Shown: positions 41,757 through 47,137 of the stretch, in pieces
How positions within the stretch are numbered: the stretch's first letter is position 1
Layout of the letters: every line of letters starts with the position of its first letter
Source of the DNA: Escherichia coli O127:H6 str. E2348/69
GTDB taxonomy: Bacteria; Pseudomonadota; Gammaproteobacteria; Enterobacterales; Enterobacteriaceae
Assembly: GCF_000026545.1 (NCBI RefSeq)
Contig: NC_011601.1
Length of the DNA: 64,000 bases
Strand: one strand, 5' to 3'
Position numbers and translations under genes: made by a program
Notes under the pieces: generated by a model
The model's database searches: none
Seen by the model: only the letters and a program-made list of their open reading frames with translations
What the model was told of the DNA's origin: nothing

Positions 41757-42792
41757 GACCAGTTACATCCTTTCCACTCAAATTAGTCAGCGTATTGTCC
41801 AGCGGTTGTTTACCTGCCAGTGCATTAAGCATTGTCGTGGCAAAGTTCGGGTCATTCCCCAGCGCCGCCGCCAGTTCGTTCAGTGTATCCAGTGCCGCAG
41901 GTGCAGAACCCACCATTGCCGCAATCGCCGATTTCACAAATGCCGTGGTGGCAATTTGTGTATTGTTGACCGACTGTGCCGCAGTAGGTGCGGTTGGCGT
42001 TCCGGTGAGTGCCGGACTCGACAGCGGCGCTTTCAGTGCCAGCGCATTGTTAATGGTGGTACTGAATTTCGGATCATTGTTAATGGCTGCGGCTATTTCT
42101 TTCAGCGTGTCCAGCGTGGCTGGCGCACCATTAATAAGAGCCGTCAGAGCCGCCTGAACAAACTCGGTGGTCGCAATCTGCGTGGTGTTATTCCCTGCTG
42201 CTGGCGTTGGCGCTTTGGGTGTCCCGGTAAACGTCGGACTTTCTTTGGGTACATACTGTGAATGCGGGTCCGGTGCGGCAAGATGTTTTGCCATCTGATC
42301 ATCCGCGTACACCTTCAGCTCCAGTGCCTTGTCATCCACATACTTGCGGGTTGCTAGCACTACAGCAGGGTCGATTTTCAGGGTGATATTGTCCGTGCTG
42401 CTGGTAATCAGCACCATGCGCACGGTCTGAGTGCGCCCGCTACCTTCAGCCAGTTGCGGCTTATAGCTTTCCGGGCAGTTGCCCACGGCAATCAATGCCC
42501 CGGACTCATCAAACAAGCCCACTTCACGTATCCACCAACCGCCCTCGTTTTCAGGAATCACCTGTTCGGCAATAATCTGACTGCTGTTCTGCGGGTCGAT
42601 ATAGAGCATATTCAGCGCAGCCCGGCGTTTCTCATTTACCAGTGCAGTCTGCTTTGAGTCTGGCGTTGGCAATACTCCGCCGCCATCGCCGACCGCCATA
42701 TGGGTAATTTTTAGCGGCACACCGAGCGCGGCGGCGCTGGCAAGTTTCGCCGCGCCAATATCCGTCAGCAGGGTATAAAATTTTGTGCTCAT
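41731..42792 (-). CDS. H: Tail fiber protein H, N-terminal constant portion only
   Basis: N-terminus matches P2 H by eye (MAVGDGGG, ESYKP.LAEGSGR, NDPNFATTM.NALAGKQP); ends at 353 aa versus ~670 in P2, exactly at site A. Confidence 0.8.
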   Translation of the reverse strand: MSTKFYTLLTDIGAAKLASAAALGVPLKITHMAVGDGGGVLPTPDSKQTALVNEKRRAALNMLYIDPQNSSQIIAEQVIPENEGGWWIREVGLFDESGALIAVGNCPESYKPQLAEGSGRTQTVRMVLITSSTDNITLKIDPAVVLATRKYVDDKALELKVYADDQMAKHLAAPDPHSQYVPKESPTFTGTPKAPTPAAGNNTTQIATTEFVQAALTALINGAPATLDTLKEIAAAINNDPKFSTTINNALALKAPLSSPALTGTPTAPTAAQSVNNTQIATTAFVKSAIAAMVGSAPAALDTLNELAAALGNDPNFATTMLNALAGKQPLDNTLTNLSGKDVTGLLTYLRLA

Positions 42793-43394
42793 GGATTCAC
42801 TCTCATTGTGTCAATAACATGGACCGCCCCGCCTTCATGCGCGGTGCCGCCAGAAATAATTGTTTCGTTGATATACGGATAGATCGTGATTTCTTCGCCA
42901 AGATAGCTGGCGGCCCCCACCCAATGCGGACCGCTGGTCTGCAGATTGATGGACATGCCGATCATGTGACGGCTACATGGTTTGGCATCGCTTATCAGCC
43001 GCTCAAGTTCCAGATAGGTATCTTCAGTGATGCCCTGGTCCTGCACGCAGATATCCAGGCGAAACGTGCCCGGTGCCTCTCCGGTCTGCCACCACTCAAT
43101 AATGCGGATCAGAAAGCCGAACGGCTCCACCACCCGCCGCACGGCACTGGTGGTTCCTTTATGCTGATGAATATAAAAAGCATCCTTCACCACCTGACGT
43201 TTGACGCTTTCTGTCCAGCCCTCGTCCCAGCGATCCACAGAGAACGCCCAAGCGAGATAAGGCAGGAAACTGACCGGACAGGTTGCCGGATTCCACAAGT
43301 CACGCAGCGGCACCTGCAGATCAGAAATCCCGCTGCAGGTTTGCGCCAGTCGGCGCTCCAGTGGCGTTGAACCCGGTGGCAGCAGACTATTCAT
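42789..43394 (-). CDS. I: Baseplate protein I (P2 gpI-like)
   Basis: 201 aa; LWNP.TCP...LPYLAWAFSVDRWDE matches P2 I. Confidence 0.85.
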   Translation of the reverse strand: MNSLLPPGSTPLERRLAQTCSGISDLQVPLRDLWNPATCPVSFLPYLAWAFSVDRWDEGWTESVKRQVVKDAFYIHQHKGTTSAVRRVVEPFGFLIRIIEWWQTGEAPGTFRLDICVQDQGITEDTYLELERLISDAKPCSRHMIGMSINLQTSGPHWVGAASYLGEEITIYPYINETIISGGTAHEGGAVHVIDTMRVNP

Positions 43395-44295
43395 CCGTAC
43401 CCCCGTTGGTCACGCTCCACTGCGTACATGATGCCGCCTGCGTTTTGTTCAGGACCACATCTGCCAGCGGGGAAGCCAGCTCCACACGCTGAACACCCTC
43501 AACATGCAGCGCGGCAAAAATGGCGCTACGGCGAATATCCCGACCAAGCCGCGTCTGACTGGCGATGTACCTCTGCAGGCTGGCTTTTGCCGCTGCCATT
43601 ACCGGCTCTGCTTCCGGCCCCGGATAGAGAAAAATGGTGGCTTCCACGCGGTACGGGATGATTTCCGCGCTGCGAACCGTCAGACGGTCAGCCACCGGGC
43701 GGACGTTCTCACTGTTCAGGGCTTTCTCCACCACATCCAGCAGGTCTTTTTCTGCTGTTCCGTCGCCTTCACGGCTTAGGACCGTAAGCACCACCTCTGC
43801 AGGTGCCGGACTGGTTGCACTGGCATCCGCCACCCGACCGTCGGCGCTTCGTGCATGAAACTCATAAGCGGCAGTTGGCCCAGCAACAGAAAGCCCTTCA
43901 AAGGCTGCAGGCACACGCAGGCGTAACGCTTCATCACTTTCCATCACAGCCGCAACGGGCGGTACAGCGTCATCATCAGCAGGTGTCACCGTCAGGCGTT
44001 TCACGTTGTAGTTAGCAGCGAGATGGTCAAGATCGCCGCCCATCGCGTAAGCCACCATCACAGCCTGCGCGGCTTCGTTAATGCGCTGGCGCAGAAGCAA
44101 CTCACGGTAAGCGTTCTCCTGCAGCAATTTGGTGACGGGTTCAGATTCCAGTTCCAGCGTACGCATCACTGCTTCCTGCTCATCTTTCGGATGAAGCGCC
44201 ACAAATTCTGCCTTGCGTTCGGCAAGCAGCGTCTCAAAGTCCGGCACATCCACAATCTGCGGCGCAGGTAACTGCGAAAGGTCAATCACTGCCAT
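43387..44295 (-). CDS. J: Baseplate protein J (P2 gpJ-like)
   Basis: Start MAVIDLSQLPAP gives 302 aa as in P2 J. Confidence 0.85.
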   Translation of the reverse strand: MAVIDLSQLPAPQIVDVPDFETLLAERKAEFVALHPKDEQEAVMRTLELESEPVTKLLQENAYRELLLRQRINEAAQAVMVAYAMGGDLDHLAANYNVKRLTVTPADDDAVPPVAAVMESDEALRLRVPAAFEGLSVAGPTAAYEFHARSADGRVADASATSPAPAEVVLTVLSREGDGTAEKDLLDVVEKALNSENVRPVADRLTVRSAEIIPYRVEATIFLYPGPEAEPVMAAAKASLQRYIASQTRLGRDIRRSAIFAALHVEGVQRVELASPLADVVLNKTQAASCTQWSVTNGGTDE

Positions 44296-44641
44296 TCTCT
44301 GCTCCTGTTGATACGGAAAGGGAAACAGGCACACCGTTATTCCGCCGCCCGGTCAGCTCCACCACCATTGAACCGTCAAAATTGCTGTTGATGGTGATGG
44401 AATCCAGCGTCAGCCGTGGCTCCCAGCGACTCAGCGCCACATACACTGCCGACATGACCTGCAGGCGTAATGCCGGATTTTGTGGCTGATCTATCAGTGC
44501 CGACAGCAGGGAACCATATTCCCGGCGAGCAATGCGGCTACCCTGCGGTGTCAGCAGAATGTCCCGCACCGACTGGCGCAGATGGTCAATATCAGTAATG
44601 GCTTTACCGCTGGTATTGTTCATCCCGCTATAAAGCGTCAT
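44282..44641 (-). CDS. W: Baseplate wedge protein W (gp25-like)
   Basis: 119 aa; gp25/GPW-like sequence (ITDIDHLRQSVRDILLTPQGSR). Confidence 0.85.
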   Translation of the reverse strand: MTLYSGMNNTSGKAITDIDHLRQSVRDILLTPQGSRIARREYGSLLSALIDQPQNPALRLQVMSAVYVALSRWEPRLTLDSITINSNFDGSMVVELTGRRNNGVPVSLSVSTGAENGSD

Positions 44642-45216
44642 ACCGGGCCTCCGGTTGTATCGCCGCCTTTCAGGACGCCAGTATGCTGATGCACATCAAC
44701 CACGATCCCGTTAGAACTCATCGCACCGCCGCCCTGGGTAACGCCGCCATTGATCACTACTTCACTATTAATACGCGTGCGGTCAGCCTCCAGCACAAAC
44801 TCACTGGTTTTCAGGGTGATATTGTCGGCAGCCTCAATAACCATGGATTTGATGCCCCTGACATACCAGCGCCCGGTGGCGGGTTCGTATTCAAACCAGC
44901 CACCGTCAGGATGTTCTGTCACGCAGGCGTCCGCCGACGTCGACGGTGGTGCGAACTGATTCGAATAGACAGCGGGCAGCGCAAAGGCGGTCTCCAGATT
45001 GCCGCCCAGACTCAGCAGCACCACCTGCTCACCTTCCGATGGTCGCCACCATGTCCGGGCATTCCCGGCACGCAGGGTCAGCCAGCTGATCCAGTTGGTT
45101 TCTAAGTCGCCTGTTTTCACCCGGCAAAGCCAGTTTTCCCTGTCCACTTCCGTGACTACACCAGTGCGGATCAGGTTGGTGATAAGGCGCATGATTTCGG
45201 TTAGTTGTGCATTCAT
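44638..45216 (-). CDS. V: Baseplate spike/hub protein V
   Basis: Start MNAQLTEIMRLITNLIRTG aligns with P2 V N-terminus; ORF-track start 45237 is a TTG extension. Confidence 0.8.
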   Translation of the reverse strand: MNAQLTEIMRLITNLIRTGVVTEVDRENWLCRVKTGDLETNWISWLTLRAGNARTWWRPSEGEQVVLLSLGGNLETAFALPAVYSNQFAPPSTSADACVTEHPDGGWFEYEPATGRWYVRGIKSMVIEAADNITLKTSEFVLEADRTRINSEVVINGGVTQGGGAMSSNGIVVDVHQHTGVLKGGDTTGGPV

Positions 45217-45261
45217 CCTTCTATAGTTGCAAAGCAAGATTTTTTTTCATCGTTGTGGCAG

Positions 45262-45279
45262 TGTATGATTTTTGGCACA
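45262..45279. promoter_or_regulatory. Late promoter activator dyad (TGT-N12-ACA) between V and cargo gene
   Basis: TGTatgatttttggcACA; likely remnant of the V-operon late promoter carried with the inverted block. Confidence 0.4.
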
Positions 45280-46453
45280 ATTGAATTCTCATATGGAGAT
45301 GACTGAAATGATCTTTGCTGCACGTTACTTGGTCGAGTTGCCTTATGTCCTCAATATTCCAGATGGTGATTATGATTTTCTATATGAAAATAACCATTTA
45401 CGCTTAACAGTTCACAACGATTACTATGCACTATTTAAAGATGCAAGCTTATTCCCTCAAACCCTATTAATCGGTACCAGAGAACAACTACTACCACATC
45501 ACACAAATGAAAGAGGGATAATGAAATGCCGGACTATTATTTCTCTCGCCAACTATTGGGAATGTTTTGACCTTTTAGAAATATCACATGAAGAACTAAT
45601 CAACTCTATAAGAAACCAAATAAGGAAAGAAGATAACTTCCCATCTGTGGAAGATGCTGAGATGCTCCTATCCAAAATGAGCCAGCAAGATATAGATAAA
45701 AAAATAGAGTTAGAGAGAAAAATAAAAACTGCTAGAGAGATATTTCCACCTAAAAGATCAGAGGAATGTATCGGAATAATAAACCACTTTATAAAACAGT
45801 ATAGAGTTGCCTTTAAAGATCAATTTGCAGACGAGATATCTCTTTATCAAGTTGGCTCAGGATTTACCAACGGAGTGTTACAAGAGCATTATTGCGATGG
45901 TATTAAGATAAGTGCAATTCCTTTAGTTGGAGTAATCACCCCATTAATGAGAGAAAGCTGGTATAAACACGATGAAAGTCTCATTGATAATTTCAAAAAA
46001 CGTTTAATGTCAAATGAATTCAATGAACATCCTGAACTATTATTGATTAGAGCAGACAATCTTGTTCATAAAGGTGCATTTAGATCAGCCGTAATTGAAG
46101 CATCAGCAGGCCTTGAAAGCTATATTCTCAGAAAAATTATTAATGCCTTTCATCGCAATGGTATCAATGAATGCCAGACAAAAGAAACATTAAATAAAAA
46201 CTGGAAGTTCGATGATAGATGTAAAAAACTATTCAAACAACTCTTTAACATCTCTGTACCCGAAATTGCGCCACTTGAGTGGCAACATGCAAATAAAAAC
46301 AGGAAAGAATTACGTGACAAAATAGCTCATACATCACATGAACCAACAGAGAAAGAAACAAAAGAATTTATAAAAAGCATCAATTTATTAATTGAAAAAA
46401 TAGACTCATACTTTAAGAAAATTAATGAATCTAACGAATCAAAAAATTTATGA
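45272..46453 (+). CDS. Hypothetical 393-aa protein (AT-rich cargo at Z/fun-equivalent position)
   Basis: Long AT-rich ORF; no core-phage homolog recognised; Rx4-6H-like motifs (RADNLVH, RDKIAH); true start may be 45293. Confidence 0.6.
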   Translation: MAQLNSHMEMTEMIFAARYLVELPYVLNIPDGDYDFLYENNHLRLTVHNDYYALFKDASLFPQTLLIGTREQLLPHHTNERGIMKCRTIISLANYWECFDLLEISHEELINSIRNQIRKEDNFPSVEDAEMLLSKMSQQDIDKKIELERKIKTAREIFPPKRSEECIGIINHFIKQYRVAFKDQFADEISLYQVGSGFTNGVLQEHYCDGIKISAIPLVGVITPLMRESWYKHDESLIDNFKKRLMSNEFNEHPELLLIRADNLVHKGAFRSAVIEASAGLESYILRKIINAFHRNGINECQTKETLNKNWKFDDRCKKLFKQLFNISVPEIAPLEWQHANKNRKELRDKIAHTSHEPTEKETKEFIKSINLLIEKIDSYFKKINESNESKNL

Positions 46454-46489
46454 TTATCTCTTCTATAATATCAAAATCAGTATCATAAA

Positions 46490-46515
46490 TTCCAAGTAAC
46501 CTACGTTTATGAAAA
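46490..46515. repeat. gix/hix-like 26-bp recombination site B
   Basis: TTCCAAGTAACCTACGTTTATGAAAA, ~55 bp upstream of invertase start; 18/26 identical to reverse complement of site A. Confidence 0.55.
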
Positions 46516-46570
46516 TGCAGAGATAATGGCTAACTGGCATCATCCACGGTTTTTATTCAGGGGATTGATC

Positions 46571-47137
46571 ATGCTTATTGGCTATGTACGCGTGTCAACA
46601 AATGACCAGAACACCGATTTGCAACGTAATGCACTGAACTGCGCGGGATGTGAGCGGATTTTTGAGGATAAAATCAGTGGCACTAAGTCCGACAGACCGG
46701 GGCTTAAAAAACTGCTCAGGACACTATCGGCAGGAGACACTCTGGTTGTCTGGAAGCTGGACAGGTTGGGGCGCAGTATGCGGCATCTTGTTACGCTGAT
46801 AGAAGAGTTGCGTCAGCGTGGCGTGAATTTCCGAAGCCTGACTGACAGTATTGATACCAGCACCCCAATGGGCCGTTTCTTTTTTCATGTCATGGGGGCC
46901 CTGGCTGAAATGGAACGCGAACTGATAGTTGAACGTACCATGGCAGGGCTGGCTGCAGCTCGTGCCAAAGGCAGAGTAGGTGGACGCCGTCCTAAGTTGA
47001 CCACCGAACAGTGGGCACAGATTGGGCGTTTACTCGAGGCCGGAGAATCAAGACAGCGTATTGCACTGATTTTTGATGTAGGCGTTTCTACCATTTATAG
47101 AAAATTTCCGGCAAATAAGAGCAATGAATCCCCCTGA
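46571..47137 (+). CDS. pin: Serine site-specific DNA invertase (Pin/Gin/Hin family)
   Basis: Start MLIGYVRVSTNDQ with catalytic Ser; near-identical by eye to e14 Pin / Mu Gin; C-terminal HTH. Confidence 0.9.
   Translation: MLIGYVRVSTNDQNTDLQRNALNCAGCERIFEDKISGTKSDRPGLKKLLRTLSAGDTLVVWKLDRLGRSMRHLVTLIEELRQRGVNFRSLTDSIDTSTPMGRFFFHVMGALAEMERELIVERTMAGLAAARAKGRVGGRRPKLTTEQWAQIGRLLEAGESRQRIALIFDVGVSTIYRKFPANKSNESP

Follow-up and report, generated by a model that had tools for sequence, protein, structure and literature searches.

The genome of Escherichia coli O127:H6 str. E2348/69 carries a P2-like prophage inserted between rcdA and ybjL, and its tail genes are interrupted by an accessory gene that we refer to here as the cargo gene. 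The window that was analysed is the whole stretch of 64,000 nucleotides of contig NC_011601.1 to which all positions refer. The gene lies in a sharp AT-rich island (45238–46509; GC 0.33, GC3 0.27), flanked on both sides by DNA with a GC of 0.56, in the V–H block as well as in the sheath-to-tape-measure block, in full agreement with the first impression that it is far more AT-rich than the tail genes around it. The 1,281 bp with the cargo region are 100% identical in three independent E2348/69 assemblies. The initial annotation described a 393-aa protein, which is what the uninterrupted frame on the + strand from 45272 to 46453 encodes when its first TTG (45272) is taken as the start. The open frame stands, but a later start is better supported: most likely translation begins at ATG 45308, giving 381 aa, because most homologues have MIFAARYL as their N-terminus, a GGAG Shine-Dalgarno sequence precedes this codon, and the RefSeq entry for the protein, WP_000575294.1, begins there as well. 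Residue numbers are given in a 384-aa frame counted from ATG 45299. Literature searches for WP_000575294, for phrog_28299, the family to which the protein belongs, and for a presumed E2348/69 locus tag gave no result. The features of the locus are collected in Table 1.

Table 1. Position of the cargo gene, its predicted domains and the neighbouring features in the window.
Feature	Position	Strand	Basis or remark
Junction A, reciprocal hybrid crossover site TTATGCTAAACG-TA-GGTATGTGAGAA	41731..41756		BLAST breakpoints; comparison with NCTC11121
Inverted 4.77-kb block (truncated H, I, J, W, V, P_V, cargo gene)	41738..46509		BLAST against L002 (NCTC11121)
Baseplate gene V	44638..45216	-	Divergent from cargo gene; 91-bp gap
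TGTATGATTTTTGGCACA, Ogr/Delta-type activator dyad of P_V	45262..45279	.	TGT-N12-ACA pattern search; P2 pV geometry
GGAG, Shine-Dalgarno	45295..45298	+	Read from sequence; 9 nt upstream of ATG 45308
Cargo gene CDS	45308..46453	+	381 aa and stop; phrog_28299, family clusters
N-terminal alpha/beta region	45308..45994	+	Residues 4-232; beta-rich domain, helical insert, helix and beta-hairpin
C-terminal HEPN domain (predicted)	46031..46447	+	Residues 245-383
R339-D-K-I-A-H344, predicted HEPN Rx4H catalytic motif	46313..46330	+	Conservation; end of core helix 3
Orphaned AT-rich 3' tail of S	46454..46509	-	Most of the last ~19 codons; ends at junction B
Junction B, hybrid invertase crossover site TTCCAAGTAACC-TA-CGTTTATGAAAA	46490..46515		BLAST breakpoints; comparison with NCTC11121
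Hin/Gin-family DNA invertase	46571..47137	+	Intact; WP_000905023.1

A late-promoter dyad was reported to abut the 5' end of the gene. The dyad is indeed there, but its geometry points to the other side of the intergenic gap. The loose pattern TGT-N12-ACA is not enriched in the window (11 copies observed, 15 expected by chance); the narrower form TGT-N9-GGYACA occurs four times, and three of the copies are found at the places expected for late promoters, namely before O, before FI and in the V/cargo gap. The fourth copy, at 35854, overlaps the inferred start of gene P. In P2 the activator site of pV is centred 55.5 nt upstream of the annotated transcription start, at the V ATG. In the window the V ATG lies 54.5 nt from the centre of the dyad, and in E. 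coli NCTC11121 (locus L002) and the divergent prophage types L003 and L004/L005 this spacing is 54.5–55.5 nt, whereas the spacing to the cargo start ranges between 9.5 and 37.5 nt. Since the first spacing is nearly constant and the second variable, the dyad is the activator site of P_V driving the divergent V-W-J-I-H operon, and it is not a promoter of the cargo gene, because a -55-type promoter facing that gene would initiate inside the ORF. A sigma-70 scan of 45100–46650 gave fewer sites than shuffled sequence and none upstream of the cargo gene, and no cargo promoter is conserved between loci. The candidate TTGTGG-17-CACAAT was rejected, as it is weak, overlaps the dyad and is not conserved in L004. 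As neither a consensus nor a conserved promoter was found, we only infer that the cargo gene is expressed in the lysogen.

The gene had been assigned to the equivalent of the Z/fun hotspot of P2, and this assignment has to be given up. In E. coli NCTC11121 a copy of the gene that is 99–99.9% identical lies between the tail genes S and V, in opposite strand to the late genes and with S overlapping its 3' end by 23 bp. The same signature is found in 16 more E. coli strains, where the match stops at base 1270, touching the virion morphogenesis gene. Homologues of 44%, 41% and 33% identity (L003–L006), the 41% one in a Pantoea genome and the other two in metagenome or read-assembly contigs, are also antisense in the S/V gap. 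Because the position recurs in these 17 other E. coli strains and three distant prophage types, the native place of the cargo gene is the S/V gap, that is, the orf30 locus of P2, and not Z/fun. In un-rearranged prophages the gene is not found between the tail-fibre assembly gene G and the sheath gene FI, the position expected of Z/fun cargo; in intact relatives the Z/fun position is occupied instead by the invertible tail-fibre segment and the invertase. According to the P2 annotation, the S/V gap of that phage contains the antisense, non-essential gene orf30, and the orf30, TO and Z regions are the three variable loci of P2-like phages (PMC3091744; PMC6823313). The cargo gene shares with orf30 the position and the antisense layout, divergent from P_V, and with P2 fun, tin and old the character of AT-rich cargo. 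The proteins differ, as P2 Orf30 is not homologous to the cargo protein (BLASTP E 0.16; hhalign probability 0.2%).

The S/V gap accommodates varied cargo. In six sampled prophages with the same V type, it is empty in two, contains an antisense gene of no assigned function in two others (145 aa and 271 aa), and holds PARIS in one (PADLOC AriA 5.7e-40, AriB 2.1e-24) and a GmrSD/NsnA-type enzyme in another (PADLOC 3.2e-23). Among ~1,030 genomes that have this type of V gene, the HEPN cargo gene itself occurs in 20 (~2%). The C-termini of S vary with the cargo, and the last 79 nt of S have a GC of 0.24, against 0.56 in the remainder, from which it can be read that each cassette supplies its own last ~19 codons of S. 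The locus thus illustrates a way of cargo exchange in which the cassette carries its own 3' end of an essential tail gene. The S/V gap is not named as a defence hotspot in Rousset 2022, Vassallo 2022, iLund4u 2024 or Moura de Sousa 2026; a 2026 survey of P2/P4 places defence systems 'within the late genes' and 'downstream of GpL'. In our opinion, the cargo gene is best explained as a 'moron' cassette that came to the S/V (orf30) accessory locus of P2-like prophages by horizontal transfer.

The position of the gene next to the invertase, which the initial annotation also pointed out, is real in E2348/69, where the invertase lies 117 bp downstream, but it is the strain-specific product of a rearrangement. 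In NCTC11121 the invertase is 6 kb off, past H, the tail-fibre assembly genes and the invertible segment, and this un-rearranged relative has the identical protein, WP_000905023.1. By BLAST, window positions 41738–46509 correspond to L002 5499–10270 in direct orientation, with both flanks in reverse. Moreover, L002 3541–5498 is missing from E2348/69; this is the 1,958-bp invertible tail-fibre segment adjoining the inverted block, and with it have been lost the C-terminus of H, both tail-fibre assembly genes and the alternative C-terminus of H. The two junctions are hybrids of 26-bp Hin/Gin-type crossover sites. Junction B combines the left half of a pseudo-site, from the seam between S and the cassette, with the invertase-proximal half-site, and junction A combines the right half of the pseudo-site with the half-site on the N-terminal side of gene H. 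The pseudo-site, TTCCAAGTAACC-TA-CGTTTAGCATAA, lies across the seam at which the AT-rich cassette meets conserved S sequence. It was found in exact form only with the HEPN cargo cassette, the best match elsewhere having at least 7 mismatches. One inversion between the invertase site and the pseudo-site, together with one deletion between the H site and the hybrid site that results, in either order, would account for the present arrangement.

As a consequence, a stretch of S has been left behind next to the cargo gene, and the remaining cassette-specific codons of S overlap the 3' end of the latter. With S truncated, H devoid of its C-terminus and the tail-fibre assembly genes all gone, the E2348/69 prophage is probably tail-defective, while the cargo gene is intact. 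Goldberg et al. described inversions of E2348/69 at 1.89, 2.75 and 2.98 Mb and none at ~0.88 Mb, the site of the prophage, and therefore the orientation of the 4.77-kb block appears to be fixed, if the coordinates of LT827011.1 and NC_011601.1 share their origin. We think that the seam between cassette and backbone happened to form an invertase pseudo-site, and that recombination at this site scrambled, and probably inactivated, the prophage.

Database searches with the cargo protein give little at first sight. Its PHROGs family, phrog_28299 (E 3e-277), has no assigned function, and searches of PHROGs, Pfam and NCBIfam relate it to no structural or chaperone family, in line with the early remark that no match to a core phage protein was recognised. 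PADLOC, suggested at the outset as a means of recognising a defence protein, did not provide one: no curated defence model matches, and the single match is to the CARF_HEPN_CSX20 profile at E 0.31. The HEPN cargo family is, in fact, lacking from PADLOC v2.0.0, Pfam and NCBIfam. A relation to cysteinyl-tRNA synthetase (Pfam tRNA-synt_1e, E 3.4e-4; NCBIfam cysS, 19 bits for a cut-off of 340; residues 59–147) was discarded as spurious, given that it appears in one of 43 family members and sits in a Lys/Glu-rich helical insert. The close family matches the HEPN and HEPN_AbiV models weakly (E 0.03–0.07), and none of its 43 members matches Pfam HEPN_Apea at E up to 0.1.

The family has 20 close representative clusters, and profile-based searching among 1.84 billion representative proteins (E up to 0.001) extended it to 197 distant ones at 50% identity. 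The latter span proteobacteria, Firmicutes, myxobacteria and planctomycetes, well beyond P2-like prophages. Among the 197 clusters there are ~45 full-length proteins of 370–385 aa (set A3), and many others (set A4) are proteins of 400–460 aa that can be aligned only from residue ~150 or ~215 onward. The two sets are related over residues 152–376 (hhalign probability 99.9, E 5.6e-32). Members of A4 match the HEPN portion of the PADLOC Csx1/Csm6 profiles with E down to 1.5e-7 and, weakly, Pfam HEPN_Apea (8 of 49 at E up to 0.1). At the sequence level the predicted link of the cargo family to HEPN is thus a transitive one, via the sister clade A4. When the PDB chains were searched with A1, A3 and A4, by sequence as well as by profile, the only matches were due to chance (cerebellin, titin, Spo16). 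By tblastn the family is absent from 50,697 phage records and 72,556 plasmids, and megablast against phages gave no match to the cargo gene.

Structure prediction, a check already proposed for detecting a HEPN or Abi fold, is more informative. The AlphaFold2 model, built on 19 homologues (mean pLDDT 84, pTM 0.78), consists of a beta-rich N-terminal domain of about residues 1–90, a helical insert at 97–148, a conserved helix and beta-hairpin at 152–210, and a C-terminal helical bundle at 245–383 with the four-helix up-and-down core of a HEPN domain. In Foldseek searches against AFDB50 the whole protein is aligned over ~380–400 columns, with E from 1e-9 to 1e-28, to proteins of many phyla that bear the UniProt label 'Apea-like HEPN domain-containing protein'. 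The structural matches of the model also include HepT, LsoA and RnlA, which are HEPN toxins of toxin-antitoxin systems, as well as the HEPN domains of sacsin and of nucleotidyltransferases. The ~230-residue N-terminal alpha/beta region is without a recognisable structural relative; it has the invariant residues E13-L14-P15, N162, Y168 and G192, and it is presumed to be the sensor or regulatory part. The AFDB model of the identical protein superimposes on our model with a TM of only 0.54, the arrangement of the domains relative to each other being uncertain.

The idea of a HEPN-like RNase, as in several abortive-infection proteins, had come from two Rx4-6H motifs, RADNLVH and RDKIAH. The cargo protein has six such pairs and at least one is present in 91% of shuffled sequences, so their bare occurrence has no weight. 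Conservation separates the two motifs. In an alignment of 61 full-length members of the family, some of them only ~20% identical to the query, R339 of RDKIAH is conserved in 60 and H344 in all 61, whereas the histidine of RADNLVH is kept in just 10, and only the former can be retained as a candidate catalytic motif. Position 340, immediately after the arginine, is occupied by H, D, N or Q throughout the 61 members, and a polar residue at this place is a classic HEPN signature. In the model the motif closes the helix 325–344 and the helix 351–383 comes next; hence Rx4H falls at the junction of helices 3 and 4, as in HEPN domains. The persistence of the R/H pair and the polar residue at 20% identity indicates a putative active site. 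Another possible second motif, R218-x5-H224, came from the 19-sequence alignment and was abandoned (R in 40 and H in 46 of the 61 members; low-confidence linker outside the HEPN bundle). Taken together, these results place the cargo protein in a HEPN family that lacks a curated model; its nearest neighbours are the Apea-like proteins, and it is distinct from ApeA.

What such a protein does in a prophage can be approached through the company it keeps. Two distant family members have informative surroundings, one adjoining SIR2-HerA and a DpdF/GajB-like helicase and the other among PIN, ResIII and transposase genes; four more are on contigs too short. No partner gene is conserved across the contexts in E. 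coli, L003–L006 and these two distant members. On the basis of the invariant catalytic pair, the defence cargo in the S/V gap and the contexts of the distant members, we consider it more likely than not that the cargo protein works alone as an abortive-infection RNase and carries a novel sensor domain. With this, the early suggestion keeps its HEPN domain and RDKIAH, loses RADNLVH, and holds its role in abortive infection at that same moderate level. The more ambitious claim, that this is a previously unrecognised single-protein HEPN defence family whose alpha/beta N-terminal module is a new kind of infection sensor, is possible and should be taken as tentative.

By analogy with ApeA, HepS, PrrC/RloC and Csm6, the lysogen would produce the cargo protein and hold it in an inactive state. 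When a competing phage infects, a phage protein or a small nucleic-acid product would act as the trigger and be sensed by the N-terminal/middle region. Two HEPN domains would then form a composite active site and cleave RNA, most likely the anticodon loops of tRNAs, so that translation would halt and the infection would abort. Besides, P_V is interleaved with the region upstream of the cargo gene, and this layout may turn the defence off at the prophage's own lytic switch, sparing the phage.

The same HEPN domain could serve other purposes. A toxin-like RNase with no anti-phage role, serving to stabilise the prophage or to arrest the growth of the host in addiction or a stress response and restrained by a cis-encoded RNA or an unrecognised small antitoxin, would be in line with the toxin-antitoxin toxins among the structural matches and with the survival of the gene in a prophage that has lost an intact S, the H C-terminus and its tail-fibre assembly genes. 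We regard it as unlikely, because no neighbouring ORF is conserved with the cargo gene in any context, the large conserved N-terminal region suits a fusion of sensor and effector and not a minimal toxin, and the S/V gap holds bona fide defence systems in other prophages. The phage itself might also use a HEPN-fold protein, for counter-defence, such as the degradation of host signalling nucleotides or RNAs, or for RNA processing in the lytic cycle. This looks distinctly unlikely for a gene that is antisense to the late operons, with a dyad whose geometry does not fit, that is carried by ~2% of the prophages with this V type (20 of 1,030 genomes) and therefore dispensable, that is found in none of the 50,697 sequenced phage records, and whose distant relatives reside in chromosomal defence islands and not in phages.

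It must also be considered that HEPN domains may be non-catalytic, as those of sacsin and of nucleotidyltransferases, both represented among the structural matches. A ligand- or protein-binding adaptor, or some other accessory role, would agree with this and with the fact that the close family matches no curated HEPN model at significance; the near-invariance of R, H and the polar residue after R while identity drops to 20% makes such a role rather improbable. Lastly, a structural or assembly protein such as a tail-fibre chaperone, as the location among tail genes could suggest, is very improbable for an antisense, AT-rich gene of HEPN fold and no structural family match in PHROGs, Pfam or NCBIfam that is present in ~2% of related prophages, all the more since there are prophages that have nothing in the S/V gap and yet, by annotation, intact tail genes next to it.

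Returning to the abortive-infection RNase, its confirmation would give the immune repertoire of E. coli a new family of HEPN defence proteins, equipped with a sensor domain not yet described, and it would draw attention to the S/V (orf30) gap as a place where P2-like phages carry defence cassettes. The concept itself is not new, given that single-protein HEPN abortive infection from prophages is already established with ApeA and HepS, and the comparison with these systems is instructive. ApeA reportedly goes back to the work of Gao et al. of 2020. It resembles the cargo gene in being a single gene with a C-terminal HEPN RNase and an N-terminal region of no known homology. The cargo protein gives no PADLOC match to ApeA at E up to 1, in a version (v2.0.0) that presumably includes an ApeA model. 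Thus, of the features of ApeA, the single gene is shared, and the profile match and the ~580-aa all-helical architecture are not. ApeA, of ~580 aa, is almost wholly helical, with N, Mid and split-HEPN domains assembled in decameric rings (Juozapaitis et al. 2026, 10.64898/2026.01.26.701840), whereas the cargo protein has 381 aa, a beta-rich N-terminal domain and a compact HEPN domain. ApeA cleaves the tRNA anticodon, its ligand binds in a pocket between the N-terminal domain and HEPN, and its activators are 5'-phosphorylated deoxydinucleotides (10.64898/2026.01.26.701840). By analogy, we take this mechanism as the best available model for the putative activity of the cargo protein.

HepS is the other close term of comparison, being like ApeA a single HEPN protein that cleaves tRNA anticodon loops upon sensing infection (10.64898/2026.01.26.701840; PMC13043305). 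It is a solo HEPN abortive-infection protein of the Salmonella prophage Gifsy-1, triggered by phage tail-tip proteins (PMC13043305). HepS has ~218 aa, no large N-terminal domain and a lambdoid host phage, in contrast to the 381 aa and the P2-like host phage of the cargo protein; no sequence similarity was found between the two, and PDB profile searches were empty. Csm6/Csx1 are set apart by their N-terminal CARF domain and their association with CRISPR-Cas, as the cargo protein has neither a CARF domain nor a CRISPR context. Therefore, we think that the cargo family is best called a new family inside a known kind, that of single-protein HEPN defence carried by prophages.

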